Part shown: in pieces, positions 21,055 through 49,515 of the stretch
Numbering within the stretch: the stretch's first letter is position 1
Layout: every line of letters begins with the position of its first letter
DNA from: Desulfatiglandales bacterium
Lineage (GTDB): Bacteria > Desulfobacterota > DSM-4660 > Desulfatiglandales > Desulfatiglandaceae
NCBI GenBank assembly: GCA_963662465.1
Contig: OY759599.1
Coordinates: 7,040,001-7,104,000, forward strand
DNA: 64,000 nucleotides
Direction of reading: 5' to 3'
Program-made: the position numbers and the translations under genes
Notes under the pieces: generated by a model
Database searches by the model: none
The model's input: the letters and a program-made list of their open reading frames with translations, nothing else
What the model was told of the DNA's origin: nothing

Positions 21055-21576
21055 CTCCTGAACAGAAGCTACAGGTCTTTGCCTAAAACGGTCAATTTAT
21101 TCAAATTGTTAAAACGGTAATGATCGCTCGCATGAAATGGTGGCAGCCGGTCATAAAAAAGCCACCATCTTTTACGGCAGGTAAAGCGGAAGGGCTACCA
21201 TTCAAATCCTCTTGTCTCATACGCAATAAAAAACCGCCGGTCCATGGGCGGGGTAAGCGGGGTACGGATTTATCAATCCTTAGGGCGGGATCAGCGGGGT
21301 ACTGGCAACATAATCAGACTCGCAACATAATGACCCCACTCCTACAAAACCCAAAACCATCTTTGCTCTCTTCGTTACCTTCTGTAAAAAGCCCTTAAAA
21401 AAAATCCTGTAAAATCCTGTAAATCCTGTAAATCCTGTCAAAAAAGATCGGAAAATCGAAAGAAACGCATGAATGCATGGGCGTCCCCCTACCCTTTGCA
21501 ACGTCCCCCATTACATGCCCTTGACGGTTAGAGAGGTAACAACCTTACAAACCTGCCAACGTCCCCATTAAGTATT

Positions 21577-21720
21577 TATGGGATATTGGACGATCGGGCC
21601 GTCCAGCACTACTTTGAACTGGGCTGTGAGGTCGAAGGCCTGGGCCGCGGGCATGTTAAGCGAATCAAGGATCAGGTGCGAAACGCTTCTCAAAACCGGC
21701 AAGAAGAAACGGGGGTAAGT
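21577..21720 (+). pseudogene. 3'-end fragment of nucleotide-sugar dehydrogenase
   Basis: Translates GILDDRAVQHYFELGCEVEGLGRGHVKRIKD, matching the C-terminus of 44039-45724. Confidence 0.85.
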
Positions 21721-21724
21721 CAAA

Positions 21725-21961
21725 ATGGAAACCATAATTGAGCTAAATGACAAAAAGATGCAGTTGAAGGAGTGTATTGCCCAAATAGAGAAAACGGGCA
21801 AAACTCTAATTATTTCCCGCGGCAAAAAGCCGGTGGCCAAGTTGATACCACACAAAAGCAAGGACCCGCTCAGTATGGACCCGACGTTGAGGGGTGCTTT
21901 TTTTGTCGATGACCCGATGGCTCCCCTGTCGGAAGCTGATTGGCCCGAGGCGTTTCGATGA
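21725..21961 (+). CDS. Phd/YefM-type antitoxin
   Basis: LIISRGKKPVAKLIP; ATGA overlap with the PIN gene. Confidence 0.8.
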   Translation: METIIELNDKKMQLKECIAQIEKTGKTLIISRGKKPVAKLIPHKSKDPLSMDPTLRGAFFVDDPMAPLSEADWPEAFR

Positions 21962-22344
21962 TTCTACTCGATACGCACGCCATTGTTTGGCTTGCTTCAG
22001 ACCAGGATCGGTTTACGGAGAAGGGGCGAGCATTGATCAGGGATAATGCGGGCCAGCTGTATGTCTCTGTTGTGTCTGCGTGGGAGATATCCATGTTGCA
22101 CAAACGAAATCGCCTGCAACTGCCCATGGAGCCGGAACAGTATGTTGATCGCCTCATCAAACAGCATGATTTGAACGAAGTGCCTTTGGAGCGAAAAGTT
22201 GTTCAGCTTTCTGTTCGTTTGCCTGATATCCACAATGATCCCTTCGATCGGGTGCTCATTGCTCTGTGCCGGGAAGAGGGATGGCTTCTTCTGTCAAAGG
22301 ACAAAATTATTCGGAAGTACCCGAGCGTACAGATTGCATGGTGA
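21958..22344 (+). CDS. vapC: VapC/PIN toxin
   Basis: ILLDTHAIVW, SAWEI, HNDPFDRVLIA. Confidence 0.9.
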   Translation: MILLDTHAIVWLASDQDRFTEKGRALIRDNAGQLYVSVVSAWEISMLHKRNRLQLPMEPEQYVDRLIKQHDLNEVPLERKVVQLSVRLPDIHNDPFDRVLIALCREEGWLLLSKDKIIRKYPSVQIAW

Positions 22345-22584
22345 ACAATTAATCCCGAGGTAACAAGTCTTGAACAAGGACCGGATAAACGGACACCTTC
22401 ACCTTTAAGCTTTTATAAAAACAGCGTAATCTGTGAAATCCGCCTGCCCCGTTCAATTTTTACCCCGTTGAACCTTCTTTTTCCTTTGTTTAACTGGAGC
22501 ACGCCAGTGACGAGTGGAACGTATTTAACCGGGGTGCCAAAAAAACTAAAGGTTCACCAGTAAAGTAACAAAAGCACCAACGTT

Positions 22585-22710
22585 ATGTAAGAGTTGGCAA
22601 CTCAAAACCCAAAACTCAAAACCCAACACCATCTTTGCTCTCTTCGTTACCTTTTGTAAAAAGCCCTTAAAAAAAATCCTGTAAAATCCTGTAAATCCTG
22701 TCTAAAAAAA
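22585..22710 (+). repeat. composite ~130-bp repeat block (CAAAACC heptamers + CTTTGCTCTCTTCGTTACCTTCTGT + AATCCTGT repeats)
   Basis: Further full or partial copies at ~21345, 29533, 41935, 45730, 47033, 47377 and 49086. Confidence 0.9.
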
Positions 22711-22765
22711 ATGGAACAAGAAGACCTGACCCACAAAATTATCGGCTGTGCCTACAAAGTATACA

Positions 22766-24563
22766 CAGCAATTCCCGCTTAGATTCTAAAGGCGCTAGGA
22801 CAGTACCTTTTGGCATTTCCTTTTCGTAAAGCTTTACGTTGAATGAATAGCCTGAAAAGGCTTTTTTCTCCAATTTTTAAAATAAAACAGGAATTTTTTT
22901 GGCAATTCTCAGAAAAAGCTGGACTTTCAGATCAACTTGGCCGATGATTACTGCCTATGGGAATCAGAAGCCAAAAAGGAAGAAAAGAGAGAGGCAAGAT
23001 TGGAGTTCGCAAGCATCTTAATGCAGATGCAATTTTCAAGCGTCTGCATAAAGATTTTTCTGAAGTCTCTGACTGCCGTGAGGATCCCGATATTACTATT
23101 GCGGATGCCTTGATGTCCGGGTTTGCAATGTTTTCGCTCAAGGAGCCATCGTTGCTTGCCTTTGATGAAAGAAGAAAAACCGATAGTAATCTTGGGAACA
23201 TATACCATATTGGAAAGATCCCATGTGACAGTACGATGCGCACCATTCTTGATGAAGTGCTCGCAGAAGAACTTCGGAAACCGTATAGGAATATCTTCTG
23301 GGAACTGCAAAGGGGAAAGGTGCTTGAACGTATGGTATTTTTCGAAGGTTGTTATCTTCTATCTTTGGATGGAACGGGTTTCTTCTCATCGAAGAAACTT
23401 TCCTCTGATAGTTGTTTGGTAAAAGTATCGAAAAAAACCGGCGAAAAAACCTATTATCAGCAGATGTTGGGGGCAGCAATTGTCCATCCGGATTTCAAAG
23501 AGGTCATTCCGCTTGCTCCGGAATTCATAGTCAAGCAGGATGGCCAAAGCAAGAACGACTGTGAGCGTAATGCCGCGAAACGTTTCTTGCAAAAGCTAAA
23601 AGAGGAGCATCCCCATCTGCCTATCATTATAACAGAGGACGCGTTAAGTTCGAATGCACCCCACATTGAAGAAATACAAAAGCAAAATTTTCATTATATT
23701 CTGGGAGTTAAAAAAGGAGATCACCATTTCTTGTTTAATCACGTCGAACAAGCGCGGATAAATGGTGACGTCACTGAATTCGAATTGGTCGATAAAGAGG
23801 ATCCGGAAAAAATACATCGTTTCCGATTTATTAACCAGGTACCTCTCAATGCCTCTAACAAGAATATGCTGGTTAACTTTCTGGAATATTGGGAAATTAC
23901 ACCGAAAAAAACAAAACATTTTAGTTGGGTGACAGATTTTTTAATAGGAAAGGACAATGCATACCAGCTAATGCGAGGCGGCCGTGCGAGATGGAAGATC
24001 GAAAATGAAACCTTCAATACTCTTAAGAACCAAGGATATCATTTTGAACACAACTACGGGCTCGGCAAGAAGAATCTGAGTGTTGTTTTTGCGATGCTCA
24101 TGATGCTGGCATTCTTGGTGGATCAAACTCAACAGCTTTGTTGCCCTCTATTTATAGCCGCATGGCATAAACTCGGCTCAAAAAGGGAATTGTGGGAACG
24201 GATGAGAGCTTTGTTTAGAGATTTTGAATTCAAATCGATGAGGATGCTCTATGAAGCCCTCTATTATGGCGTAAAGTTTCAAGCGCCAGTTATTCTATAT
24301 AACAGTGGTTAAATTTGTCATGCCCAAGTTCGCATACAAAAATGCTCTCATTAATAAAAAACTGGAGATTCCGGAAATGGATATCTCTGCCCTAACTCGT
24401 GCTTTTATGCTCTTACTCTTGTCAAAGAAGCTCAACCTGCAAGAAATCGAGGGAGGTAATAGTGGATTTAATACAATTTTTCTGAAAAGGATCTGATCTC
24501 AGGGTTTGTTTTTGAAATATGTTTTTCAAACTCTGTGAGTAAATTCTTGACCGGGAATTGCTG
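22766..24563 (+). mobile_element. IS (1798 bp), probably ISNCY/IS4-like
   Basis: IR CAGCAATTCCCG; 9-bp TSD AAGTATACA at 22757-22765 and 24564-24572. Confidence 0.93.
22957..24312 (+). CDS. DDE transposase
   Basis: SLDGTG, TEDAL, RARWKIENETFNTLKNQGY. Confidence 0.9.
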   Translation: MGIRSQKGRKERGKIGVRKHLNADAIFKRLHKDFSEVSDCREDPDITIADALMSGFAMFSLKEPSLLAFDERRKTDSNLGNIYHIGKIPCDSTMRTILDEVLAEELRKPYRNIFWELQRGKVLERMVFFEGCYLLSLDGTGFFSSKKLSSDSCLVKVSKKTGEKTYYQQMLGAAIVHPDFKEVIPLAPEFIVKQDGQSKNDCERNAAKRFLQKLKEEHPHLPIIITEDALSSNAPHIEEIQKQNFHYILGVKKGDHHFLFNHVEQARINGDVTEFELVDKEDPEKIHRFRFINQVPLNASNKNMLVNFLEYWEITPKKTKHFSWVTDFLIGKDNAYQLMRGGRARWKIENETFNTLKNQGYHFEHNYGLGKKNLSVVFAMLMMLAFLVDQTQQLCCPLFIAAWHKLGSKRELWERMRALFRDFEFKSMRMLYEALYYGVKFQAPVILYNSG

Positions 24564-25015
24564 AAGTATACAACAGACTGGGCTTCGGCTTCCTGGAAAG
24601 CATTTACCACAAAGCCATGCTCATCGAACTCGCAAGGGCCGGACTAAAAGCAGAATCTGAAAAAGGCTTAACCGTTCATTATGATGAGATGGTTATTGGA
24701 GAGTTCTCAGCGGACATATTTGTGGAAAATGAAATCATCGTAGAACTCAAAGCGGTTGAGCGGCTGATGAAAGTGCATGAAGTGCAAGTGGTGAACTACC
24801 TAACAGCATCGAAAAATGAAATTGGCCTGCTAATCAACTTCGGCCCAACAGGCGTCAAAGCTACCCGCAAATACCGAAAACCCCTCAAACAGGCACAAAG
24901 AATCAACCAGAAAAAGAAACCCAAAAAAAATCCTGTTAATCCTGTCTAAAAAAAATACAAAAAATTGTATCCAGTCAGAAACTGGGCACCTAAATTCTCA
25001 CTGCAAAAAAAACCG

Positions 25016-25044
25016 TTGACATCTTCCCCGTCTTCGCCTAGTGT
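25016..25044 (+). promoter_or_regulatory. candidate sigma70 promoter (near-leaderless MarR transcript)
   Basis: TTGACA-17-TAGTGT, ATG 7 nt downstream. Confidence 0.5.
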
Positions 25045-25051
25045 TCGCCCC

Positions 25052-25438
25052 ATGAACCATCTTTACGAACAAGAAATACGCTACAAAGTCCTGAAACTCC
25101 TGGCATCCAAGGCCAATCTCTCCCAGCGGGAAATGGCCAAACAAATGGGCATCAGCCTGGGGAAAACCAACTATGTCCTCACAGAACTGGCCAACAAGGG
25201 CATCATCAAAATAAAACGATTCAAAAGCGCCCCCAGCAAAGTCCCTTACACCTACACGCTGACACCCCAAGGCCTTGAAGAGAAGGCCAAAATAACCCTC
25301 AAATTCCTGAAACGGAAACTCTCTGAATACGAAGAGATCAAGCGACAGATAAAAGAGATTGCAAAAGAAGCCGAAAAAGACAAAGTTCTCGATGCCACAG
25401 GCGCCGACACAAACGAAGTATTGGCTCAAATCATTTAA
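25052..25438 (+). CDS. EPS-associated MarR-family regulator
   Basis: SQREMAKQMGISLGKTNY...YTLTPQGLEEK; lies ahead of the sugar genes. Confidence 0.85.
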   Translation: MNHLYEQEIRYKVLKLLASKANLSQREMAKQMGISLGKTNYVLTELANKGIIKIKRFKSAPSKVPYTYTLTPQGLEEKAKITLKFLKRKLSEYEEIKRQIKEIAKEAEKDKVLDATGADTNEVLAQII

Positions 25439-25663
25439 CGAAAGAAAACAGCAATTATTCCAGTCATATAAATGATTTTCCGTTATGGAAATCAAAGAGC
25501 GGAGCCGTCTCCGAAGGCTGAGCCCCCCGAGAATTCGGGTGCCTGAATTTTAATGCAACACCCCTTTGCTCCAACAATAAATCCCCTTCGTTTTCTTCGT
25601 TACCTTCTGTAAAAAACAAATCCTTGAAATCCTGTTAATCCTGTCAAAAAAAAAGGCCTAAAA

Positions 25664-27304
25664 ATGAAAATTACCCAACCCAACATCGCCGTCATCGGCT
25701 CCGGCTACTGGGGCAAGAACCTTGTTCGCAACTACCACCAGCTCGGCGCCCTCAAGCTCATCTGCGACAAAAACGAAACCGTCCTTTCCAGTTTTTTGGA
25801 ACAATACCCCGGTATCGACACCTGCTTTGCCCTAAATGATGTCCTGTCCCGTGAAGACATTCAAGGCATCGTCATTGCTACCCCGGCGGAGACCCACTAC
25901 ACCCTGGCACGGGAAGCGCTACTCGCCGGCAAGCATGTTTATATCGAAAAGCCCCTGGTACTCAAAGAGGAAGATGGGCAGGATCTGATCCGACTGGCCA
26001 AAGAGAGCGATCTGGTTCTGATGGTCGGCCACCTGCTTCAGTACCATCCGGTCTTCCTCAAACTGAAGGACATGGCCGTCTCCGGTGAACTGGGCAGGAT
26101 CAACTACATCTATTCCCATCGGCTCAATTTAGGCAAAATCCGCCGGGAAGAAAATATCCTCTGGTCCTTTGCCCCCCACGATATCTCCATGATCCTCTCC
26201 CTGGCCGGCGAAGAACCGGATGCGGTCATGGCCACGGGCGGCAACTACCTTCACAAAAAAATCGCTGATGTCACCACCACGCACATGGAGTTCCCCTCCG
26301 GCCTCCGTGCCCACATCTTCGTCTCCTGGCTGCATCCCTTCAAGGTTCAGCAACTGGTGGTGGTCGGGGACAAAAAGATGGCGGTATTTGACGACACCCT
26401 GCCCTGGGAAGACAAACTGCTGCTCTACCCCCACGAAATCAACTGGCGGAACAACATCCCCGTCCCGTCCAAAGCGGAAGCCGAAAGGGTCGATATCCCC
26501 CAGGCGGAACCCCTCCGTATGGAATGCGAACATTTTCTCCAGTGCATTGCCGACGGACGGAACCCACAAACGGACGGGGCTGAAGGGCTGCGGGTTTTGC
26601 GGATCCTGAATGCCGCCCAGCGGTCGCTGGATGTTGAGGGGGAAAAGATTGATCTCGCGCAAAGACGCAAAGGCGCAAAGAAGTTAGAGGACGGAAGACG
26701 TGGGGTGGAACCGGCAACCGACAACCGGCAACCGACAACTGATTTCTTTGTTCACGAAACCGCGATCATCGACGACGGCTGCGAAATCGGCAAAGGATGC
26801 AAAATCTGGCATTTTTCCCATATCCTGTCCAACACAACCCTGGGCGAAAACTGCAATATCGGGCAAAACGTGGTGATCGGTCCCGATGTCGCCATCGGCA
26901 AAGGGTGTAAAATTCAGAACAATGTTTCCGTTTACAAAGGCGTTACCCTGGAAGACGGTGTTTTCTGCGGACCGTCCATGGTCTTTACCAACATCTACAA
27001 CCCAAGGGCCGAAATCCGGAAGATGGACTAGGTCCGCCCGACCCTGGTGAAACACGGCGCGACCCTGGGGGCCAACTGCACCATCGTATGTGGAACCACC
27101 ATCGGGGAATACGGCTTTGTGGGCGCCGGCGCCGTGATCACCCACAATGTTCCGGACCATGCCCTTATGCTAGGCAACCCCGCTCGCCGCGTCGGATGGA
27201 TGTGCCAATGCGGAGAACGCCTGACTGACGATCTGGATTGCCTGGCCTGCGGCAAAACCTATGAAAAAAACGAAGACGGCTTAAAAGAAATTAGACAGGA
27301 TTAA
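25664..27304 (+). pseudogene. Gfo/Idh/MocA oxidoreductase fused to hexapeptide N-acetyltransferase (WbpB/WbpD-like), in-frame TAG at 27029
   Basis: [32 protein letters not shown]; frame continues to [12 protein letters not shown] and GNPAR. Confidence 0.88.
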
Positions 27305-27456
27305 CAGGATCAACAAGATTAAAAACAAGAAAACAATCCTGCAAAATTCTGTTAATCCTGTCAGAAAACAGTCTTTTGTTGAAAAAACCTTTCAGATGTG
27401 TATAAGAACTTGCCTTCTTTGTAAAGCATCCGGTAATATTTGATAATCTTCTTGAG

Positions 27457-27990
27457 ATGATGGGGTCGAATGCTGAAATTGTCTATGTTGATAAAATCGT
27501 TCCCGATGCTTACCATGGAACTGAGCTTAAAACAGCTCTAAAAATACTCAGAGGAAAGAACTTTATTCCGAGCAGAGGGAAAGAAACATATTTAGGGGAT
27601 GGCGTATATTTTTACGAAAGCTCATTATGGCACGCCAGACAATGGTGTCAAAGGCGTTTTCCTGGTTTAAGACATGGTGTAATTTGTGCTGCAATCAATT
27701 TAAGGAGGTGTTTGGACCTCCATAATTACGAACACCGCAAGCTTCTTCAGCAAGTAAGATTAAACTTGGAAATGAAAGGTTACAAAAAATTAACCGACAC
27801 TTTTTTGATAAACTTCTGCGCTACCAACATAAAAGAATTTGACACCGTTAGATGGACATACACCGCAACTGGCGGCAAATATGGCAAAATATATCCAGGA
27901 TCAAGAATAGATGATTTTTCACAGCTCATAATTTGCGTAAGAAACCAGGAATCAATTCTCAGCATTGAACTGGCTGATGAGGGGGGCTGA
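27457..27990 (+). CDS. putative ADP-ribosyltransferase-fold toxin
   Basis: AYHGT, YLGDGVYFYE, QLIICVRN; first gene of a triad ending in a SecB-like gene. Confidence 0.65.
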   Translation: MMGSNAEIVYVDKIVPDAYHGTELKTALKILRGKNFIPSRGKETYLGDGVYFYESSLWHARQWCQRRFPGLRHGVICAAINLRRCLDLHNYEHRKLLQQVRLNLEMKGYKKLTDTFLINFCATNIKEFDTVRWTYTATGGKYGKIYPGSRIDDFSQLIICVRNQESILSIELADEGG

Positions 27991-27992
27991 AA

Positions 27993-28265: not shown

Positions 28266-28280
28266 AGGCGCCTTCATAAA

Positions 28281-28745: not shown

Positions 28746-28813
28746 GCAATTCTTTTCGCAAAAGAAATCCTGTAAAATCCTGTTAATCCTGTCAAAAAAA
28801 CCGGAGAACCGTT

Positions 28814-29986
28814 GATGCAACAGAAACAACCCAATGCAACCATCAACAACGCCTCCTCTCCTCTCGGCGTGTCCACCTCCCCCAGCGGAGAGGCGTTCCC
28901 TTTGATCTTTTTGGAAAATTCCGTACCTGAACCGGGGCATTTCCCCCGTGGAGGCTGAAGATCCGGATGTGGCGCCCTTGATTCAACGGTGTGTACAGGA
29001 CAAAAAGACCCTCACCGCCACCTTTACCTACGACGCCCTGTCCCTTGCGGACGTGGTGGTAGTGGATGTTCAGTGCGATTACCACAAGGAGAGCCTGGGG
29101 AATGTTCGTCAGGGACATGCCGACATAGAGGCGCTGGAAGAGAGTCTCAAGATTATCGGAGAGAAGATTGAACCGCACTGTCTGGTCTTGATCGAAACGA
29201 CCGTTCCTCCCGGCACCACGGAGTATGTGGCATACCCCATCATAAAAAAGGCCTTTGAAGCGCGCGGCCTTTTTCAGAGATCAGATGTCGAAGATCAGCG
29301 ATCAGAGCAGGCAAATCCCGAATCAGAGCCCCAATCTCAGTCCTCCTTGCCCCGTGAAATTCACGTCAGTGACGAGCGCAGCGAATTTCACCGGGGTGAC
29401 CTCCGACCTCTGACCTCTGTCCTCTGACGTCTGTCCTCTGTCCTCTGACGTTTGTCCTCCGTCCTATGGGTCGGATAGTGGCCGCCTCCAAAATTATTCA
29501 AGCGCTTGAATCGGAGAAGCCGGCGACAGATAGATGTAAGAGTTGGAAACTCAAAACCCAACACCATCTTTGCTCTCTTCGTTACCTTCTGTAAAAAGCC
29601 CTTAACAAATATCCTGTAAAATCCTGCCTGCCCCGTAGCTCCGGCAGATGGTACTGGGGTTAATCCTGTCTAAAAAAAGGTCCCGGTTTTTCAGGAACCA
29701 GGACAAACTGAAGGAAACCGCCGTTCAGGATGACCTGGATCAGACCCTGTCCGGAGCTGATGCCATTATCCTGGCCGTACGACACCAGGCCTATCTTGAT
29801 CTGGAGCCGGATAAGGTGGTGAAAATGATCGGTGGTCCGGCGGCCGTGGTGGACTGCTTCGGGGTGTCGGACGACGACGCCATCAAGCGGTATTTCGAGT
29901 TGGGCTGCGAAGTGAAAGGTCTCGGCCGAGGGCACATCAAACGCATTAAAGATGAGGTTCGAAACGCTTTTCAAAACCAGCAATAA
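28814..29986 (+). pseudogene. degraded second copy of nucleotide-sugar dehydrogenase
   Basis: Four collinear pieces (28814-28902, 28903-29270, 29466-29496, 29679-29986) match 44039-45724. Confidence 0.9.
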
Positions 29987-30141: not shown

Positions 30142-33100
30142 ATGGATATTAAAAACGCAAAAATCCTGGTTATCGGTGGCGCAGGCTTTATCGGCAGTCA
30201 TGTTGTGGCGGAATTGCTCAAAACAGATGTTGCTGAAATCCTCATCTAAGACAATTTTACAAGAGGAAAACACGACAACATATCCCCGTACCTCGGCGAT
30301 CCACGCTGTACGGTCTACCCCAATGGCGGTGATATTCGGGATACCGATGTGCTGGCCGATGCCATGACGGGGTTGATGACGTTGTACACCTCGCCGCCAT
30401 GTGGCTGCTCCACTGCAAGGATTACCCCCGGACGGCCTTTCATGTAAACATTGAGGGCACATTTAATGTCTTGGAGGCCTGCGTTAAAAGCAATGTGAAA
30501 CGGCTGGTTTATTCTTCTTCCGCCTCTTTGTATGGCGATGCTGTTGAAGTCCCTATGACCGAGGAGCATCCGTTCAATAAATGTGCTTGCCCTTCAATCC
30601 GATATCAACGACGAATTTTACAATGTTGGTACTGGCGTACAAACCAGTATACAGACCTCGTTACGAGAGGTGGTTTTACCCCCCGATTTTTGGACACTTG
30701 CCTATTTGAGGGGCGAATTTCCGACTTCAAGCTGGAGTAATTTTCCAGCGGGGGGTGATTACCCTCAACTGACTTAGTTTCCGGCAAAACTGTTTTTGGG
30801 CGGCAAGACGACTGGGCTGTTGGAGGGGCTCAAGACGTACTGTCACTTTCTTATTGTCGCTCCTTATCCAGCCATGGCAATTGGTAATGGCATAGAATAG
30901 ATCAACATACTCATTCTTGTTTTCGTAAAGCGGCAGAAGCCACTCTACCATTTGCTTGCGAGCATTCCACACGCTTGCGGTCACAAGGTCAAATAAATAC
31001 TTGCTTTCATCACAAATACGCTGAAAACAAGTGTAATCCTCCAGCCATGAAACATCCACTCTTTCAGGGAGTTGTTTTACTTTCCCCTTCAAGATTTCAA
31101 CCTCAGACTCCTTTTCTTTGATCTGCGAAAGGACATTTTGGCGGACACTGTTTTTCCGAGTACTGCCATCTTTATTGAGGACTTCGTTGCTTTTTGACAG
31201 CTTTTTATACAGTCCTACAAGCTTTGCCTTAATTCCGGAAGCCTTCGTCTTGATCTCTTTGAGTTCAGGATTGGCGATTTCCTGATTCTGACTTTCAGTA
31301 AACGAATATCCCGGTTGGTAGTTAAGGGGATGTTTGTCTCCTATATGCTTAAAGGTGTTTTCAGAGGCTCCCCAACGGTTGAGGATCGCCATTGCGCATT
31401 GCTCTGTGCCCATTCTGTCCGATGGAACATTCGACAGAGCGCAGGTCCGGCGGTTACTGGAAACATTCCATAGATAAATGCGCCTAATCGTTAGAGTTTC
31501 AGTTTTCTTTTCATCTACGTCGCAGGTGAATACCTTTTCCCCTTCAAATATCCGATATGACTTGCCATTTAAACTGAATTCTTCTGTGAACAACTCTTCG
31601 TCCAACGCCTTGAGCTTATTGATGTCAACATTCTTTTCCCAAGTTACAAAACCGACTCCTGCCAGATTCATTTCATAAAAAAAATTGCCCCCTTGCCCTT
31701 CCCGGTCAAATACCATCACCGGTCCTGGAGTGACTTCTGCCTTCCATTTAATCCCTAACTTAATAAGATAATTACGGATATCGCCTTTTCCCTCCTGAAT
31801 CTCAAAATCAATGACCCTGCCGCTTGAATCGCAAGCAACGATGTTGTTGCGACCCGGAACCATCATCCTCCGCTGCGTATTGAAGGCTTTATGTACTTTG
31901 TTTTTCCCGGTATAAGGCAACAAATGACCGTCTACAAACCACAGCCATGTGCCGACGAGTCCGGAACGAATTTGCTGGAGGGTAAAATGAGACAGCATCT
32001 GGCGTGCTGTATCCAACTTGCAGGCAGCATAAAGCCATACGCGCGCCTTTGTTTTGCTTGGCAAATTCCGGATGCCAAGGATGAGACCTGCTTCGCGTCC
32101 GTGAAGATTTTTCAGTTGCTCGATGGAGCGGGTATTCTTTGCAATCATCAAGACAAAAGTAAACAATAACTTATATTTATTTCCCAAGAAGGAGGATGTC
32201 ATCCGCGCCCAGTTATTGAGGTGGATCAAAGTAATCAGGTAAGTAAAAACGCCCGCATAGCGCGTTGCTTCCCAGCCATGTTTCTCGCTGAAGGGTTGAT
32301 CTTCCGGGTCAAGAGTGCGGTCGCCGAAAGGGAGTTCAACTTGTGTATCCAGCCGCTCTCTCTCCCCTTTTCGTATCTGCTCCAGTTGCCTGGCCTTGTT
32401 CCCTTTAAGAGCTTCATCGGCATGGGCTTCACGGTTCTGGCGCAAGGTCGCACCTTTTGAAGGCGTATAGTTGCGGATAAGGCCTTCAAGACCGAAATGT
32501 TTCTTTATTTCCTGGTAGTTATGGATGGTCTGGCGGCTGATGTTAAGCGCTTCTGCAAGATGGGTTTTGGTAGCGCCAAGCTCGGCGGCTTCGACGACAA
32601 AAAATCTTTTGGCCACCTTGTCAGAAAGGTCAGCAGTCTTTACCAAGACGTCATTATGGTAAAGGCTGACGTGCGTTTCGATGTCGTCTTTAAATTTCAG
32701 ATAGAGCCGCTGGCCGATGAATTTAAGCGCTTTATCTTCGTTCGATACATCATCGAACAATAATCCCTGGGTCATGATTGCCTCGCTTCATTGTTTGCAG
32801 AAACGAGAGTATTCCATCCTTCCGGAAGTGTCAATTAATTTTTACAAATTAAAAAATTTCAAAAATTATATTAATATCTTGCAACTTCGACTGTCCAATT
32901 CTCAATTAGAGACACTCTAACTGCTTGAAAACACGATTGGACCACCGCAAAACCGCCCGGGGCTTAACGAGGTCTGGTATAAAAGAATTGTGTGACCTGA
33001 TCCTGAAACTGAAGGAATCAGACTTGAAGGTCACCTACAGACCCTACAGCGCTGAAGATGCCCGCCGGCTCGTCCAGAACCGGATCGGTAGTCCCGACAA

Positions 33101-40231: not shown

Positions 40232-40249
40232 ACACAAGATAAATATTGC

Positions 40250-40940: not shown

Positions 40941-40969
40941 TTGACAAAGGCACCATTATGACGTACATT
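40941..40969 (+). promoter_or_regulatory. sigma70 promoter of DUF1778-GNAT pair
   Basis: TTGACA-17-TACATT. Confidence 0.6.
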
Positions 40970-41008
40970 TATGCAGCGTGTTGATAAAAAACTCAGGGAA
41001 ACTTTACC

Positions 41009-41835: not shown

Positions 41836-42019
41836 CACGTCCTTCAGACCGCATCGACTGCCCAGAATTCAGCATTCAGCATTCAGCATTCAGAAAAAGC
41901 TATTTATTTTCTTATGGATGTCCCCCATTGCTACAAAGCCCTAAGCAAATATCCTGTAAAATCCTGCCTGCCCCGTAGCTCCGGCAGATGGTACTGGGGT
42001 TAATCCTGTCAAAAAAAAA

Positions 42020-42315
42020 GGTCCCGGTTTTTCAGGAATCAGGACAAACTGAAGGAAACCGCTGTTCAGGATGACCTGAATAAGACCCTGTTCGGAGCCG
42101 ATGCCGTTATTTTGGCGGTGCGACACCGGGCCTATCTTGATTTGGATCCGGATGGGGTGGTGGAAATGATCGGTGGTCCGGCGGCCGTGGTGGATTGTTT
42201 CGGGGTGTTGGAGGATGTAGCCATCAAGCGCTATTTTGAACTGTGCTGTGAGGTCAAAGGTCTCGGCCGGGGGCATGTGAAACGAATCAAGGATGCGGTC
42301 AGAGATGCTGCGTAA
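42020..42315 (+). pseudogene. 3'-end fragment of nucleotide-sugar dehydrogenase
   Basis: Begins GGTCCCGGTTTTTCAGG as at 45429; ends KDAVRDAA*. Confidence 0.9.
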
Positions 42316-42379
42316 GACAGCTTATCAACAAAAAATCCTAAAAATCCCGTAAATCCTGTCAAAAATGAAAAGGCCTTAG

Positions 42380-42869
42380 CCGAAAAGACCATCGAAGATA
42401 TCCATCTCCATTTTGGAGAACCCAAAAGAGCCCCTATAAAGAGGTATCGAGAATTCGTCGAGAGAGGGATCAAACAGGCCTGGCCGACTCGCCTGAGGCT
42501 CTCGAAGGCGGGCGTGGGAAGGAGGACGCGAGGATCTTTGGGAGTGGTGATTTGATTGATGAGGTTCTCGATAACTCGAATGAATCCTATGAATTGAAGA
42601 AGAGGAACAAGAGTTTGTTGGATGATTTGATTCAGCGTGTAATGTCCGATATGCCTTTGGAAATGGCCCAATTAAAGTCACCGAAGAGAGACTCAAGAAC
42701 AAGCAAAATAAAGTTGATCATAAGTTTTTTGGCGGTGAACCAACTCGGAATGAGCGCTACAACTGTAGCCGAAAAACTGGATATTACCGGTATGGCGGTC
42801 GGAAAGTGCGCGGATAGAGCAGAAAAAAGGTTTGACACACAACGAATAATAGCGGAATATCTCCAATAA
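42380..42869 (+). pseudogene. C-terminal remnant of a probable Y1/REP-associated transposase with HTH
   Basis: YREFVERG, GSGD.IDEVL, HTH GMSATTVAEKLDITGMAV; directly followed by a GCGTCCCC end. Confidence 0.55.
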
Positions 42870-42910
42870 GTTTACAAGTTGACAGCGTCCCCCTTTCAGG
42901 AGTCTAAGCG

Positions 42911-43141
42911 ATGAGCTGGAAAAACCGAATTGTTGCCAATCCGGATGTCCTTGTTGGAAAGCCTGTTATAAAAGGTACCCGCTTAGCCGTAGAATTCATT
43001 ATAGATCTCTTGGCTCAAGGCTGGACTGAAAACGATATTATGGAAAATTATCCGGGTGTGATGCGTGAAGATATTGCGTCTTGCCTGAGTTATGCTGGAG
43101 AAGTGCTGAAAGCAGAAAAAGTCTTCGCAATGAGTGCGTGA
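42911..43141 (+). CDS. DUF433 antitoxin
   Basis: GKPVIKGTRLAV...YP...DIASCLSYA. Confidence 0.9.
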   Translation: MSWKNRIVANPDVLVGKPVIKGTRLAVEFIIDLLAQGWTENDIMENYPGVMREDIASCLSYAGEVLKAEKVFAMSA

Positions 43142-43143
43142 GG

Positions 43144-43530
43144 ATGCGCATCCTTGCTGACGAAAATTTTCCTGGCATAGCCGTTGACGAATTAAGAAAG
43201 CGCGGTCACAATGTGGTCTGGGTGCGCACTGAAAAGCCCGGGATCGGGGATCGTGTCATCCTGGAGTGGGCACAGACTGAGGAGAGGCTCCTTGTCACAT
43301 TGGATAAAGACTTTGGCGAATTAGCCTTCGGTAGAGATCTTGCTGCACGGTGCGGCGTTGTGCTTTTCAGGATGAAGATTTCCAATGCAAGGACAGGTTC
43401 GATGAGGATTGTTGATATCTTGGAGAGTCGCTCTGACTGGCCTGCGCATTTTTCTGTTGTTGAGGACGACCGTATCCGTATGCGGCCGCTTTCACCGACC
43501 TATCGCACCCGACTCATACCAACCAGCTAA
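43144..43530 (+). CDS. DUF5615 PIN-like toxin
   Basis: MRILADEN...LVTLDKDFGEL. Confidence 0.88.
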   Translation: MRILADENFPGIAVDELRKRGHNVVWVRTEKPGIGDRVILEWAQTEERLLVTLDKDFGELAFGRDLAARCGVVLFRMKISNARTGSMRIVDILESRSDWPAHFSVVEDDRIRMRPLSPTYRTRLIPTS

Positions 43531-43847
43531 TTCCATAAGTTACAAGTTGATAACGTCCCCCATCCACATCTTCAGCTGTCTGAACGTCCAAAACAGACAA
43601 CTGTCGCTGAGAACAAGACAACTTACGGAAATAATTAAGCTCATGCCCTTTTCTGTTGTTGAGGACGACCGTATCCGTATGCGGCCGCTTTCACCGACCT
43701 ATCGCACCCGACTCATACCAACCAGCTAATTCCATAAGTTACAAGTTGATAACGTCCCCCATCCACATCTTCAGCTGTCTGAACGTCCAAAACAGACAAC
43801 TGTCGCTGAGAACAAGACAACTTACGGAAATAATTAAGCTCATGCCC
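43450..43847. repeat. 199-bp tandem duplication
   Basis: 43450-43648 is repeated at 43649-43847. Confidence 0.95.
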
Positions 43848-44038
43848 TTCATGGTAAAACCCGTATTCCGATCGTCCATCCCCCATGAGCCATCATCCCC
43901 ATCTCGAGTTACTGAATTACAAATGGACGTCCCCCATTGTGCACTAAACAAAAATCCTGTAAAATCCTGTTAATCCTGCCTGCCCCGTGAAACCCGTTTT
44001 TTTGTTTCATTGGGGTCTAAAAAACCGGAGAACCGTTG

Positions 44039-45724
44039 ATGCAACAAAAACAACCCAATGCAACCATTAACAACGCCTCCTCTCCTCTCGGCGTGTCCAC
44101 CTCCCCCAGCGGAGAGGCGTTCCCCTTGCCGCAGACCGAGGACTATAACCAGGAATTCAAGAGACTCAAGAAACTGGTGAATGAACAACGGCTCAAGGGC
44201 CGGGAAATTGTCGTTGTCATGGGTGTGGGGTTTGTAGGCGCTGTTATGGCGGGTGTGGTTGCCGACTCGGTGAATCGGGAAACGGGGGAATCCAGGTATT
44301 TCGTTATCGGCATGCAGCGGCCTTCTCCCCGATCTTTCTGGAAAATTCCGTACCTCAACCGGGGCATTTCCCCCGTGGAGGCTGAAGATCCGGATGTGGC
44401 GCCCTTGATTCAACGGTGTGTACAGGACAAGCAGACCCTCACCGCCACCTTTACCTACGACGCCCTGTCGCTTGCGGATGTGGTGGTAGTGGATGTTCAG
44501 TGCGATTACCACAAGGAGAGCCTGGGGAATGTTCGTCAGGGACATGCCGACATAGAGGCGCTGGAAGAGAGTCTCAAGATTATCGGAGAGAAGATTGAAC
44601 CGCACTGTCTGGTCTTGATCGAAACGACCGTTCCTCCCGGCACCACGGAGTATGTGGCTTTCCCCACTATCAAAAAGGCCTTTGAGAAAAGGGGTCTAAG
44701 AGATGCGGAACCGCTCCTGGCCCATTCCTTTGAGCGGGTCATGCCGGGTCGGGAATACGTTGCCTCCATCCGCGACTTCTGGCGGGTCTGCTCCGGTATC
44801 AACCAAGAATCCAGGGAGCGGGTGGAACTGTTTTTGTCCAACATCCTGAATGTGGATAAGTTCCCCCTGACCGTGCTGGACCGGCCTATCGAAAGCGAGA
44901 CCTGCAAGATCGTAGAGAATTCTTACCGGGCCACCATTCTGGCATTCATGGACGAATGGAGCCGGTTTTCCGAGAAAAACGGGGTTGACCTCATCAAGGT
45001 CGTGAAGGCCATCAAGGTGCGACCCACGCACGCCAACATGATCTTCCCAGGCCCGGGTATTGGGGGATACTGCCTTCCGAAAGACGGCGGTCTTGGCGTC
45101 TGGGCCTATCATACGCTTATGGGGTTTGAAGATGATATCTTCAAGATCACCCCCATGGCCATCGACATCAACGATACCCGTGCCCTGCATGTGGCCCAGT
45201 TGGTGCGTGATGCGCTGCGGAATATGGGACGGATCGTGGCCGCCTCCAAAATTGCGGTATTGGGCGTCTCCTACCGGGAAGATGTGGGCGACACGCGTTA
45301 CAGCGGTTCAGAGATGGTCGTCCGGAAACTCACGGAGATGGGCGCGGATGTGGTGGTTCATGACCCGTATGTCAGCCACTGGTGGGAGCTGGAAAAGCAG
45401 GATACCTATCCCTCTCCCGGCCATTCGTGGTCCCGGTTTTTCAGGAATCAGGACAAACTGAGGGAAACCGCCGTCCAGGATGACCTGAATAAGACCCTGC
45501 CCGGAGCCGATGCCGTTATTTTGGCGGTGAGACATCAGGCTTATCTCAATCTGGACCCGGATGGGGTGGTGGAAATGATCGGGGGACCCGCAGCCGTGCT
45601 GGATTGCTTCGGGGTGTTGGACGATGCGGCCATCAAGCGGTATTTTGAGTTGGGTTGCGAGGTCAAGGGACTTGGTCGGGGGCATATTAAGCGGATTAAG
45701 GATGCGGTCAGAGCTTCTGCGTAG
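44039..45724 (+). CDS. nucleotide-sugar dehydrogenase (UDP-glucose/GDP-mannose dehydrogenase family), intact
   Basis: GVGFVG, ETTVPPGTT, ERVMPG, KIVENSYR, PGPGIGGYCLPKD, HDP. Confidence 0.92.
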   Translation: MQQKQPNATINNASSPLGVSTSPSGEAFPLPQTEDYNQEFKRLKKLVNEQRLKGREIVVVMGVGFVGAVMAGVVADSVNRETGESRYFVIGMQRPSPRSFWKIPYLNRGISPVEAEDPDVAPLIQRCVQDKQTLTATFTYDALSLADVVVVDVQCDYHKESLGNVRQGHADIEALEESLKIIGEKIEPHCLVLIETTVPPGTTEYVAFPTIKKAFEKRGLRDAEPLLAHSFERVMPGREYVASIRDFWRVCSGINQESRERVELFLSNILNVDKFPLTVLDRPIESETCKIVENSYRATILAFMDEWSRFSEKNGVDLIKVVKAIKVRPTHANMIFPGPGIGGYCLPKDGGLGVWAYHTLMGFEDDIFKITPMAIDINDTRALHVAQLVRDALRNMGRIVAASKIAVLGVSYREDVGDTRYSGSEMVVRKLTEMGADVVVHDPYVSHWWELEKQDTYPSPGHSWSRFFRNQDKLRETAVQDDLNKTLPGADAVILAVRHQAYLNLDPDGVVEMIGGPAAVLDCFGVLDDAAIKRYFELGCEVKGLGRGHIKRIKDAVRASA

Positions 45725-46158
45725 GGAACTATAAATGTAAGAGTTGGCAACTCAAAACCCAAAACCCAAAACTCAAAACCCAAAACCATCTTTGCTCTCT
45801 TCGTTACCTTCTGTAAAAAGCCCTTAAAAAAAATCCTGTAAAATCCTGTTAATCCTGTCTAAAAAAGAGTTATAGAATTATGAGCAATGTCCCCCATTCC
45901 CCTCTATCTCACAGAGGATGACCAAAAGAAAATTGCGGCTGCTATCGGGGATAGACCATAGCCTAATACCTATCGCCCATAGGGGGAGGAATATGAGGGA
46001 AACCAGTGGCATTATGAACTGGGAGAGAAAGGGGCTGCTTACAGTGCCAATTTTGCCCCCAAAAATGTACTTCTAAGCCCAGAAAACGCATATATTTTTG
46101 ACTTAAACATTGAATAATCAATAGGATAGTTTGGTCAGACCTCAGACTGCAGCATGAC

Positions 46159-47013
46159 ATGAGCGCAGAAAATAAAATTCAGTTATTTCAAAACCAAAGC
46201 GTAAGAACACATTGGGATGAAGAACAAGAAAAATGGTTTTTTTCTATTGTGGATGTTATTGCAATTTTAACGGAGCAAAAAGATTATCAAGGAGCAAGAA
46301 ATTACTGGAAAGTATTAAAACATAGACTTGTAAAAGAAGGAAACGAAACGGTTACAAATTGTAACCGTTTGAAAATGATTGCCAAAGATGGCAAAATGCG
46401 AATGACTGATGTAGCTGATACTCAACAGCTATTACGTCTTATCCAATCTGTTCCATCGCCGAAAGCAGAGCCTTTTAAAATCTGGTTGGCAAAAGTAGGT
46501 GCACAGCGGATAGACGAAATAGAGGATCCCGAACTATCTTTTGAACGTGCTATGGAAACCTACCTTGCAAAAGGATACTCCAGGGAGTGGATAAACCAAC
46601 GCCTGAAAAGTATTGAAGTTAGAAAAGAACTAACAGACGAATGGCAAGAAAGAGGAATGAAACAAGGCTTGGAATACGCCATTTTAACCAATGAACTCAC
46701 TCAAGCCTGGGCCGGAAAAAATGTAAAAGAATACAAGAAATACAAAGGGTTGAAAAAGGAAAACTTGCGAGATAATATGAGCAACCTTGAACTGGTTTTG
46801 AATATGCTTGCAGAAGCTTCTACAGCAGAAATATCGAAAGAAAAGATACCAAAAGGATTAGAAGAAAATAAGGATATTGCTCGTAAAGGTGGTAATGCTG
46901 CTAAAAAAGCAAGATTGGAGATTGAAAAACAAACAGGGAAACCAGTCGTAACAACTAAAAATGCAAACAACCTTTTAGACAAACCTAATCATGAAAATAT
47001 TGAAAATGAGTAA
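46159..47013 (+). CDS. Bro-N domain protein (antirepressor-like)
   Basis: WFFSIVDVI, ARNYWKVLK, QSVPSPKAEPFKIWL; low GC. Confidence 0.8.
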   Translation: MSAENKIQLFQNQSVRTHWDEEQEKWFFSIVDVIAILTEQKDYQGARNYWKVLKHRLVKEGNETVTNCNRLKMIAKDGKMRMTDVADTQQLLRLIQSVPSPKAEPFKIWLAKVGAQRIDEIEDPELSFERAMETYLAKGYSREWINQRLKSIEVRKELTDEWQERGMKQGLEYAILTNELTQAWAGKNVKEYKKYKGLKKENLRDNMSNLELVLNMLAEASTAEISKEKIPKGLEENKDIARKGGNAAKKARLEIEKQTGKPVVTTKNANNLLDKPNHENIENE

Positions 47014-47109
47014 ATCATTAGGCTTTTACACCTTCGTTTCCTTCGTTACCTTCTGTAAAAAGCCCTTAAAAAAAATCCTGTAAAATCCTGTAAATCCTGT
47101 CTAAAAAAA

Positions 47110-47371
47110 GGAAACCGCCGTTCAGGATGACCTGAATAAGCCCCTGTCCGGAGCCAATGCCGTTATTTTGGCGGTGCGACACCGTGCCTATCTTGATCTG
47201 GACCCGGATGGGGTGGTGAAAATGACCGGTGGTCCAGCGGCCGTGGTGGACTGCTTCGGTTTCTTGGACGATGCGGCCATCAAGCGGTATTTTGAGTTGG
47301 GTTGCGAGGTCAAGGGACTTGGGCGGGGGCATATTAAGCGGATTAAGGATGCGGTCAGAGCTTCTGCGTAG
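47110..47371 (+). pseudogene. 3'-end fragment of nucleotide-sugar dehydrogenase
   Basis: Ends KDAVRASA* followed by the same downstream block as the intact gene. Confidence 0.9.
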
Positions 47372-47528
47372 GGAACTATAAATGTAAGAGTTGGCAACTC
47401 AAAACCCAAAACCCAAAACCCAAAACTCAAAACCCAAAACCCAAAACCATCTTTGCTCTCTTCGTTACCTTCTGTAAAAAGCCCTTAAAAAAAATCCTGT
47501 AAAATCCTGTAAATCCTGTCTAAAAAAA

Positions 47529-47617
47529 GGTCCCGGTTTTTCAGGAACCAGGAGAAACTGAAGGAAACCGCCGTCCAGGATGACCTGAATAAGCCCCTGT
47601 TCGGAGCTGATGCCGTT
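47529..47617 (+). pseudogene. short dehydrogenase fragment
   Basis: Starts at the same GGTCCCGG junction and is truncated after ~90 bp. Confidence 0.85.
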
Positions 47618-47864
47618 TTACACTATCACGGTAATAGGAAAATCGAAAGAAACGCATGAATGCATGGGCGTCCCCCTGCCCACAGAAAACATCCTAACCC
47701 CTGCGGCTTTCCGCTTCGGGTGCCTTTGTAATCCGGCTTGTCGAAGATGCCGAAATGCGGTGTCCCGTGAAATTGACGAAGTCAAGAGCGGAGCTCATTA
47801 GGATAGCTTGCCCGATCCCAGCCCCCCAATGGATGCCCCCCTTATGATGTGTAAGCCCTAATGC

Positions 47865-47904
47865 TTGACAGCTTCCAAAACGATGTGTATACATGATGTA
47901 TATC
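47865..47904 (+). promoter_or_regulatory. vapBC promoter with overlapping operator-like repeats
   Basis: TTGACA-17-TATACA overlapping TGTATACATGATGTATAT. Confidence 0.6.
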
Positions 47905-47925
47905 CATTGCGCTGCAGGAGGTGCT

Positions 47926-48156
47926 ATGAATACAGCCAAAATCTTTAGGAGCGGAAATTCTCAGGCAGTACGCTTGCCAAAAGATTTCCAGTTTAATGTA
48001 TCTGAAGTCGAGATTTATCGCAGGGGGGATGAGGTGGTCCTGCGAAAGAAGCTTCAGAATCTATCCAGGGTTTTTGACCTGCTAACCGACATGTCCGATG
48101 ATTTCATGGAAGACGGTCGTAATCAGCCTCCCATGCAGGAGAGAGAACCGTTTTGA
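47926..48156 (+). CDS. vapB: AbrB-fold VapB antitoxin
   Basis: TAKIFRSGNSQAVRLPKDFQF. Confidence 0.92.
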   Translation: MNTAKIFRSGNSQAVRLPKDFQFNVSEVEIYRRGDEVVLRKKLQNLSRVFDLLTDMSDDFMEDGRNQPPMQEREPF

Positions 48157-48557
48157 TATATATGTTGGACACGGACATTTGCATTTACACGATCAAACGC
48201 AAACCAAGCAGTGTTGTGAATCGACTTGAACAGCTTAAGCCTGGCGAACTTGCAATGTCTGCCATCACTTTTGCGGAGTTGGTGAATGGGGCAAAGAAAA
48301 GCAAGTATGTTGAAGCAAATATGGAGCGGCTCAATGCCTTGGGTGAATTGATCGACGTCCGACCGTTTGATAAACAGGCTGCCCTTTTTTACGGAAGTGT
48401 TCGCTCCAGCCTTGAGAAGAGAGGAGAAGTGATCGGCGGAAACGATCTCTTGATAGCGGCTCATGCACTAAGTCTCAACTGGACCCTGGTTACGAATAAC
48501 GAAAAGGAATTCAGACGGGTTGAAGGATTGAGAGTTGAAAATTGGGTCGATGCATAA
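48153..48557 (+). CDS. vapC: VapC PIN toxin
   Basis: YMLDTDICIY, DLLIAAHA, LVTNNEKEF.RV.GL. Confidence 0.93.
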   Translation: MIYMLDTDICIYTIKRKPSSVVNRLEQLKPGELAMSAITFAELVNGAKKSKYVEANMERLNALGELIDVRPFDKQAALFYGSVRSSLEKRGEVIGGNDLLIAAHALSLNWTLVTNNEKEFRRVEGLRVENWVDA

Positions 48558-49192
48558 TCGTGTTGATTTACAAAAGAAAATCCAGTGAGTTAAGTCCAGA
48601 ATCGTCTCTTGCTCCTTCGGTTTTGTGCGGTTTCTGTCATCTGTCAGCTGAACGCTGCGATCTGTTTTTCCGGCCCTTCGACCTCTGACTTCTGGTTCTT
48701 AAAGGCCTCTTTTTGACCCCCAAAAGGGGTGTTTAAGGTCCAGAAACCCCCTGTATTGTGGGGTAACATGCCGATATTAAGGGATTCAGCTTGGTCAGAT
48801 CCCCAATCCGACCCCTGCCTTCCCCGTGAAACCTCTTTTGTATTTGTTTCACCGGAGCTTCATCGGGCTGCTAAAAAAGAGCAGTGGAATAGTAGCAGCG
48901 TTCCCCACGTCCCCCGTTGAACTAAATACCTGCCTATGGGAGGCAAACGCTCCGGATTCCTTTTCTCCGTTTTCTTAAAGGCGCCTTTTTGGGGTCAAAA
49001 AGCGTGTTTTAAGGTTGATTTTTGGGTTTTTTTTAGGCTTAACCTATTGAATAAATGGGAATGTTCCTGGTCCGACCCCGACCCTATAAATGCAAGAGTT
49101 GGCAACTCAAAACCCAAAACCATCTTTGCTCTTTTCGTTATCTTCTGTAAAAAGCCCTTAAAAAAAATCCTGTAAAATCCTGTCTAAAAAAA

Positions 49193-49515
49193 GGTCCCTG
49201 TTTTTCAGGAACCAGGAGAAACTGAAGGAAACCGCCGTTCAGGATGACCTGAATAAGCCCCTGTCCGGAGCCGATGCCGTTATTTTGGCGGTGCGACACC
49301 GGGCCTATCTTGATCTGGACCCGGATGGGGTGGTGGAAATGATCGGTGGTCCGGCGACTGTGGTGGACTGCTTCGGGGTGTTGGACGATGCGGCCATCAA
49401 GCGGTATTTCGAGTTGGGTTGTGAGGTCAAGGGACTTGGGCGGGGGCATATTAAGCGGATTAAGGACCGGGTGCGGGCTTCAATAAAAGCTGAAGAACCA
49501 AAAACTCCAAAATAA
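49193..49515 (+). pseudogene. 3'-end fragment of nucleotide-sugar dehydrogenase
   Basis: Same junction; ends KDRVRASIKAEEPKTPK*. Confidence 0.9.

Follow-up and report, generated by a model that had tools for sequence, protein, structure and literature searches.

Several described systems stack DNA units at the end of a gene or displace the gene's own end, and they form the background to the locus that we report here, an array of truncated gene ends, repeat modules and small cargo genes in a 64,000-nucleotide stretch (hereafter the window) of the genome of a Desulfatiglandales bacterium. At fda, the elements ICESt1 and ICESt3 and cis-mobilizable elements undergo tandem accretion, in which units come to be stacked between repeats of the target gene's end; these are short att sites that a tyrosine integrase generates. 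In the orphan C-terminal modules of rhs and cdiA, displaced 3' ends accumulate downstream together with their own cargo through recombination in the conserved part of the gene, and the ends are diverse toxins with immunity genes that are selected for diversity. Where e14 is inserted in icd, the live gene continues into the element, and a C-terminal copy (icdC) that is 5'-truncated and has diverged at synonymous sites lies at the element's other end; chimeric genes arise when the two copies recombine (PMC13626634).

The window comprises bases 7040001-7104000 of a single 8.16-Mb contig (assembly GCA_963662465.1, contig OY759599.1) and has a G+C content of 45%. It holds an intact nucleotide-sugar dehydrogenase gene (44039-45724, + strand) and, besides it, six 5'-truncated copies of that gene's 3' end, which we call tails. 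As with e14 and icd, an intact live gene, here of 561 aa, is followed by truncated copies (at 47110, 47529 and 49193); e14, however, has its own integrase, a fixed att site and one relic, whereas the array consists of units of 0.4-2 kb without a recombinase gene and has many relics and varying crossover points. The serial stacking of units separated by repeats of a gene end recalls the accretion at fda, but the repeats found here are mosaics of ~300 nucleotides (nt), and no integrase is linked to the arrays. Unlike the ends at rhs and cdiA, the ends in this array all encode the same enzyme C-terminus. With integrons, and with clusters of attC sites that have no integrase, the locus shares its small cassettes, many of them toxin-antitoxin pairs and mostly in one orientation, a recurring punctuating element and a variable order; here, however, a direct word-repeat arm takes the place of the attC hairpin and there is no IntI at the array. 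What sets the locus apart is the combination of displaced gene ends with accretion that involves no element-borne integrase, on repeat modules of the GxxExxY type.

The intact dehydrogenase is WbpA-like, with N-terminal, central and C-terminal UDPG_MGDP_dh domains and a match to TIGR03026; the core copy of the lineage, at genome 5873944-5875563, is a paralogue 73% identical to it. The initial annotation, made from the sequence alone, had listed six extra 3' ends, and all of them were recovered by BLAST of the gene region against the window. Four tails begin at gene position 1394: those at 29679-29986 (type 2 end, ...VRNAFQNQQ; match at 29679-29958, 83.6% identity, E 1e-82), at 42020-42315 (type 3 end, ...VRDAA; 42020-42314, 86.8%, E 6e-100) and at 49193-49515 (type 1 to ~nt 270, then an end of its own, ...VRASIKAEEPK; 49193-49466, 91.2%, E 3e-109), and a partial tail at 47529-47633 (47529-47617, 92.1%), which keeps the first ~90-105 nt and is ended by a short module at 47634-47681. 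In the type 1 tail at 47110-47392 the junction lies 34 nt further in, the deletion being flanked by AAGG; together with the repeat block that follows, this tail matches over 47110-47527 at 90.7% (E 2e-169). The sixth, which had been placed at 21577, is a short divergent tail of type 4 (21580-21696; 21580-21672, 76.3%, E 1e-13) that consists of the gene's last ~117 nt only and is joined to a different motif; it does not stand directly behind the repeat block, ~130 nt of other sequence lying between. All six tails are on the + strand, and translating them reproduced the differing C-terminal peptides that had been listed.

The repeat module is ~118-146 nt long and present in seven copies in the window (a 118-nt block at 72-100% identity in the repeat search), which agrees with the ~130-bp block described earlier, the same repeat families being recovered. 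It starts with ATGTAAGAGTTGGCAAC and ends with AATCCTGT(N)AATCCTGTC(T)A5-10, and both ends are sharp, with differing sequence abutting on either side. The reference module at 45735-45870 runs through ATGTAAGAGTTGGCAACTC, (AAAACCC)n, ...CTTCTGTAAAAAGCCC, three AATCCTGT words, C and poly(A). The others, likewise on the + strand, lie at 21320-21446, with an arm of AATCCTGT words at its end (21345-21429 is 98.8% identical to 45774-45858), at 22585-22709 (92% identity), at 29534-29678, and at 46991-47108, 47382-47527 and 49083-49192, the last three identified by repeat search and BLAST. The copy at 29534-29678 has a 39-nt insertion in its arm and is preceded by a 38-nt linker that starts with the palindrome ATTCAAGCGCTTGAAT; the arm at 41932-42019 (+) contains the same insertion and is 91% identical to 29592-29691 over 100 nt. 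A further arm lies upstream of the intact dehydrogenase (43947-43987, +; repeat family search and BLAST). A short recurrent module (...GGAAAATCGAAAGAAACGCATGAATGCATGGGCGTCCCCCT.CCC) at 21447-21494 (+) is found again at 47634-47681 (96%) and after a copy of the gene truncated at position 920 in the 8.11-Mb locus. At 29679, 42020, 47529 and 49193 the tail begins immediately 3' of a module's poly(A), and the junction, AATCCTGTC(T)A7-9 followed by GGTCCC, is letter-identical in position. The common start base that had been claimed therefore stands for these four, while 47110 has the same junction minus 34 nt.

The tails are mosaics. Their first ~100 nt are nearly alike, the first ~75 nt being near-invariant in every tail, and their last ~100 nt split into at least four 3'-end types. 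Type 1 comprises the full copies, 47110, a tail at genome 8115768, the tail of a congeneric genome (G010) and, as far as about nt 270, 49193. Tail 29679 and a position-920 copy have type 2, 42020 and a tail at genome 8121741 have type 3, and the short tails form type 4. When types are compared, their 3' thirds show proportions of synonymous difference (pS) of 0.5-0.9 against proportions of nonsynonymous difference (pN) of 0.04-0.17, and an alignment of six long tails, four of them in the window and two in the 8.1-Mb locus, shows that each has kept its open frame. Constraint is relaxed between close pairs (49193 against 8115768: pN 0.054, pS 0.08). Since the differences are mainly synonymous, the tails diverged as parts of working genes. 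The near-full genes of the present genome carry type 1 only, and the core copy represents a fifth type. A public full-length protein of 560 aa (P0004) has the type-3 ending ...AVRDSA; P0002 ends in ...EVRNAFQNQQ, and public truncated proteins bear type-2 and type-3 ends. The suggestion that the tails derive from anciently diverged alleles under purifying selection is borne out by the pS and pN values and by the type-3 end of P0004. A fixed crossover, also suggested, does not agree with the data: the tails depart from the majority sequence at varied points, at about nt 86, 147, 197, 205 and 271, and this variable onset of divergence points to homologous recombination. Exchange inside the tails is evident most directly from 29679 and 42020, which share the 39-nt arm insertion yet end as type 2 and type 3. 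The type-3 tail at 8121741 is without the insertion, and the 3' third of 42020 has a pS of 0.16 against 8121741 and of 0.74 against 29679.

Different cargo stands behind the tails, as the initial annotation had reported from the reading frames, and Pfam matches identify it. The short type 4 tail forms a cassette (21527-22590) with a Phd antitoxin (21725-21961) and a PIN toxin (21940-22344), of which there are copies at genome 7031520-7032573 (98%) and in the congener. A degraded epimerase follows tail 29679, and DUF433 and DUF5615 follow tail 42020. A gene with a Bro-N domain (46159-47013) comes after the intact dehydrogenase, and the same cassette follows the gene in two paralogous loci. Behind tail 47529, the unit 47682-49085 carries a MazE-like antitoxin (47893-48156) and a PIN toxin (48153-48557) and is 99.8% identical to genome 7019179-7020582. 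All cargo genes of the array are small and on the + strand, and a domain search of the open reading frames (ORFs) between the tails found no recombinase domain. Rfam and tRNA scans gave nothing at the array. Its description as an accretion-like series of module, tail and cargo is thus upheld.

The 5' part of the dehydrogenase is present a second time, in a broken copy at 28791-29495 (+) that has a 202-nt deletion and matches 44015-44128 and 44331-44685 at 96-97% identity. This copy contains inverted arrays of heptamer words at about 29259-29466, whose predicted fold is not significant (z -1.4), and a piece of gene positions 1188-1218 at 29465-29495; over 28791-29986 as a whole, a linker and a module occupy the place of gene positions 1219-1393. 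Related word repeats are inserted in the dehydrogenase near position ~655; two copies carry them as inverted arrays, and two others as a one-sided array that keeps the frame. Beyond the window, at ~48-56 kb and 8.105-8.124 Mb of the genome, where members of the dehydrogenase family are 93-97% identical, lie a further two near-full copies, two that are cut at position 920 and three additional tails joined at 1394; 5' fragments occur at genome 7.005 Mb. The genome totals are seven tails joined at 1394, one joined 34 nt further in, two position-920 copies and two short type-4 tails. Both position-920 copies are cut exactly at the poly(A) of a module, and the internal junction sites 920 and 1394 share TGG.(S)CCGGTTTT(T)C, with 11 of 13 letters alike. 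The three loci have an order in common: an oxidoreductase/acetyltransferase fusion, a DegT aminotransferase, toxin-antitoxin pairs, the dehydrogenase, the Bro-N cassette, a truncated dehydrogenase and further glycan genes. Window 28904-29827 and genome 8123335-8124253 are positional homologues (the broader span being 28791-29830 against 8123040-8124253). Accretion at this particular gene, as first envisaged, does not describe the locus well, since the intact gene has three of the six tails on its upstream side and three paralogous loci share the whole arrangement.

Among 30 relatives of the same order, 29 have a match to the dehydrogenase, and where an ortholog-like copy exists the best is 68-78% identical, like the genome's own core copy. 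Close extra paralogues with orphan tails were seen only in the congener G010, an assembly of eight contigs; the genomes of most of the other relatives are fragmented metagenome-assembled genomes, so absence from them is weak evidence. A search of 80 other genomes of the family (42 of them at least 90% complete and at most 5% contaminated, many fragmented) did not find the junction, and two patterns for it had no match in JGI metagenome contigs. The congener has the same module/tail junction with the 34-nt deletion that is seen at 47110. Its cassettes are 93-100% identical to those at genome 7.01-7.09 Mb and 8.116 Mb, and their order differs: a helix-turn-helix cassette stands before Phd-PIN in the congener and after it in the present genome, and the tail unit of the congener is flanked by cassettes whose neighbours differ in the present genome. 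A single orientation of the cassettes and a variable order between relatives therefore both hold, and the fixed order in relatives that would have spoken for simple local duplication was not what the comparison showed. A marine metagenome run (X4) contains the Bro-N and VapBC cassettes with few differences. In a sample with the same organism label (X3), a unitig of depth 22.5 joins the gene body (to 45421) to a tail start like that of 49193, the shorter side of the join being 57 nt.

The arm of the module is a word-repeat arm of the kind carried by GxxExxY (PDDEXK_3) nuclease cassettes. Arms of AATCCTGT words are concentrated, mostly in one orientation, in the three paralogous glycan/toxin-antitoxin loci, which hold 74 of the 81 genome matches to tandem AATCCTGT words (63 forward, 18 reverse). 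In a locus from an unrelated phylum (L034), the inverted pair GACAGGATT...AATCCTGTC encloses a GxxExxY gene, so that ACAGGATT/AATCCTGT words flank it, and such pairs, 36-450 nt apart, are present in 10 of the 80 loci listed. The 17-mer of the arm was found across many phyla in at least 124 stretches, which by our own arithmetic is about chance level for a 17-mer, so only the inverted pairs count. Gene-less hairpins of the ACAGGATT/AATCCTGT arm family also occur in many phyla and twice in the window, at 27290-27369 (fold z -4.6) and 49788-49870 (z -4.0). By contrast, most AATCCTGT arms of the present genome are unpaired and direct (the exact 17-mer has 35 forward and 8 reverse copies); they lie beside ordinary genes, and gene tails are fused to them. 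The GxxExxY genes of the AATCCTGT family sit between direct arms (window 22669 and 24913; genome 8119315 and 8119759). That of the window (22711-24949, +) starts right on the poly(A) of an arm, is split by an IS4-type insertion sequence at 22763-24564, leaving a 3' part at 24617-24949, and has an arm in the same orientation on its 3' side (24913-24953). A canonical GxxExxY cassette, with inverted arms of CGCAGATTA words around the gene, lies at 51610-52125; the inverted, hairpin-forming layout is present in this cassette and in the two gene-less hairpins and absent from the AATCCTGT family that punctuates the array. On TIGR04256 the genes score 137 bits (51678-52115), 92 (24617-24949), 140 (genome 8119339) and 128 (L034). 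A solitary arm of CGCAGATTA words was also noticed at 33207-33237.

We hold with moderate confidence that the tails are relics of earlier or foreign alleles of the gene end, displaced by homologous recombination in the last ~300 bases that imported a tail together with its cargo and module. The identical junction seems better explained by descent than by repeated site-specific integration: the shared 39-nt insertion, the 34-nt-deleted junction of the congener and the positional homologues all suggest that the junction was inherited, and they argue against the independent integrations at one base that the initial annotation had proposed. In the mechanism that we infer, one or a few illegitimate joins would have created the module/tail junction, the broken copy at 28791-29986 being a candidate progenitor. 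The junction would then have been inherited and spread via recombination between directly repeated modules and tails, either by unequal crossover or by excision of circles and their Campbell-type reinsertion. Whenever a relic tail crossed over with the live gene, the gene's former 3' end and its downstream cargo would be stranded behind a module, and arm-side deletions (at positions 920, 1394 and 1428) may later have eroded the copies. The graded truncation series, from the broken body to copies starting at 920, 1394 and 1428, counts in favour of this explanation, and the unitig of sample X3 fits an exchange of tails. Several points weigh on the other side. The data are unitigs, in which no circle, deletion variant or crossover was observed directly, and a paralogous locus in sample X3 could be the origin of its unitig. 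A near-invariant stretch of ~75 nt at the start of the tails would also be expected from a recombination site under selection, and the likeness of sites 920 and 1394 at 11 of 13 letters could mean recognition by an enzyme instead of homology-driven deletion. Extra rearrangements must be assumed for the three tails on the upstream side of the intact gene.

An enzyme acting at the arm end is the main rival to displacement by homologous recombination. An enzyme, the GxxExxY nuclease that goes with the same arms being the most plausible candidate, or a recombinase supplied in trans, would cut or exchange strands at the 3' end of the arm and join it to a favoured sequence of the gene, TGG.SCCGGTTTTYC, so that units would integrate repeatedly at the same base, as was first proposed. 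Such a dedicated system would account for module ends that are sharp and constant against at least four left contexts and many right contexts, for the two internal gene junctions that resemble each other, for the conserved start of all tails and for intact GxxExxY genes, at genome 7021919 and 8119339, that start right on the poly(A) of an arm. End points of similarity also cluster at arm ends (19 of 131 against 4.1 +/- 2.0 expected), a figure that is partly circular because the arms are themselves repeats. We consider this explanation unlikely: the junction variants, with the 39-nt arm insertion and the 34-nt deletion, are shared by descent, divergence begins at varying points inside the tails, the pseudo-palindrome at the junction folds like shuffled sequence (z -0.6 and -0.7), and the junction was not found in the 80 other genomes of the family or in the JGI contigs. 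GxxExxY proteins, moreover, have no known activity, and a literature search returned no paper on a GxxExxY/PDDEXK_3 (PF13366) repeat element, going by titles and the beginnings of abstracts. The bolder form of the idea is that the AATCCTGT arms and the GxxExxY nuclease that they enclose constitute a new cassette-recombination system, integron-like but with neither IntI nor attC, in which an enzyme would break the DNA at the 3' end of the arm, and this break would take up genes and gene ends, fuse neighbours in frame and reassort toxin-antitoxin and glycan genes inside a genome and from one genome to another; this we regard as quite improbable.

A purely internal history, with repeated duplication in the lineage, 5' deletions on the arm side and gene conversion among old paralogues as the source of the different 3' ends, would dispense with import and stepwise accretion. 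It agrees with the gene, module and Bro-N cassette that three paralogous loci have in common at 96-97% identity, with the gradation of the truncations and with the AAGG microhomology flanking the 34-nt deletion, and the 1394 form can be derived from the 920 form by a deletion between similar sites and one change in an A-run. It leaves unexplained types 2, 3 and 4, which have no full-length counterpart in the present genome yet show purifying selection and saturated synonymous change, and whose ends occur in proteins of other organisms; nor does it readily accommodate cassettes that are 98-100% identical in a different species of the genus whose other shared parts are ~93-95% identical. On this evidence an internal history is possible but doubtful. 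That strain variants of one gene end were piled by the assembler into a false array is, finally, most improbable. Short-read unitigs do break at each repeat, so that the order of the units cannot be confirmed from them, but the whole genome is one 8.16-Mb contig, every tail has unique flanks of its own and the same module/tail junction occurs in the independent assembly G010. In public unitigs of the probable source sample, the part 42277-43479, which is single-copy, has a depth of ~47x and the part 47682-49085, which is present twice, one of ~81x, in agreement with the assembled copy numbers, which makes misassembly unlikely; this check concerns unitigs, not reads, and is uninformative for the parts that they do not cover.

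If displacement and accretion by homologous recombination are indeed at work, a surface-glycan locus would diversify by stacking small cassettes, using as handles the last 300 bases of a housekeeping-type gene and a portable 130-bp repeat. The process would be a homology-driven counterpart to integrons and island accretion with no element-borne integrase, it would tie the widespread GxxExxY repeat arms to large-scale genome shuffling, and the relic tails would be a dated record of past alleles.

An integron was considered as an explanation of the array and set aside, there being no IntI in the window and nothing at the cassette boundaries in a crude attC screen, in line with what had been noted at the outset. 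On TIGR02249 (cut-off 265 bits), none of the window's six tyrosine recombinase ORFs exceeds 69 bits, and the intI matches of the genome above that cut-off, at 3.29, 4.43, 4.98, 6.13 and 6.79 Mb, are at least 200 kb from the array. The attC screen, a RYYYAAC..GTTRRRY pattern with a fold-energy filter, gave seven sites (14 on both strands) across the 95-kb array, compared with 0-6 per stretch in 12 controls; several were inside genes and none was at a cassette boundary, as judged by a crude pattern in place of a proper attC model. A true integron exists elsewhere in the genome, where an intI gene (4425408-4426355) adjoins seven identical 1609-bp cassettes (4413960-4425224), each with a 131-nt attC (GTCCAAC...GTTGGAC). 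Three tyrosine recombinase genes in a row at window 5710-11275 resemble a recombinase-in-trio, with an insertion sequence inserted at 7457-9505, and further broken recombinase genes follow at 11317-13384. The trio was considered as a driver of the array and rejected: a second copy is found at 282 kb (genome 282098-285330) and none at the other arrays.

Two other roles for the arm and its junction were considered and dropped. The arm as a leader for individual genes is not supported, since an ORF of at least 50 aa begins within 45 nt after 13 of 37 arms and 45% of random positions pass the same test; on its + strand the module has no promoter according to a promoter scan. The pseudo-palindrome of arm words and TTTTTCAGGAACCAGGA that spans the junction folds no better than shuffles, whereas the true hairpins reach z values of -4.0 and -4.6. 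The minus strand of the junction (49193-49213; 47531-47553) resembles an intrinsic terminator, with an 8-bp hairpin followed by T7. A small insert, CCTGCCTGCCCCG...GGGGT, lies within AATCCTGT arms at window 43970-44015, 29620-29660 and 41960-42000 and also in another locus (L009, 10650-10810), so that the arms look like a target of this insert. A second recurrent motif of ~30 nt, GTAACAAAAGYRCCAACGTCCCCCATTAC, is present for example at window 21503, 41920 and 43929; 20 of the 47 genome copies of its core fall in the 100-kb stretch at genome 7.00-7.09 Mb, often near the left boundaries of toxin-antitoxin cassettes.

Word repeats are found within coding sequence as well. The fusion of an oxidoreductase with a hexapeptide acetyltransferase at 25664-27031 (+), presumably WbpB/WbpD-like, has its halves joined through in-frame CAACCGR word repeats (26700-26740). 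In-frame repeats also lie at genome 53560-53669 and 8110977-8111052, and GACCTCY/GTCCTCY words add ~30 residues to the dehydrogenase copy at 8.11 Mb, a 585-aa open frame. Just upstream of the intact dehydrogenase there is a perfect (100% identity) 199-nt tandem duplication at 43450-43848. Four multi-copy insertion sequences break up the 21-50 kb region (22763-24564, 30651-32980, 33859-35729 and 35730-37672). Elsewhere in the window, a beta-CASP/metallo-beta-lactamase RNase gene (750-1820 and 3745-4071) is split by a 1.87-kb insertion sequence (ORF 1934-3742) with ~25 near-identical copies in the genome. An Acido-Lenti-1 RNA match at 54025-54069 (39.5 bits; gathering score 37) lies ~500 nt upstream of an IS200-like Y1_Tnp transposase gene (54587-55063), and an ORF at 59192-60175 combines a DruA-like (Druantia) segment with a DDE_Tnp_1-associated domain.

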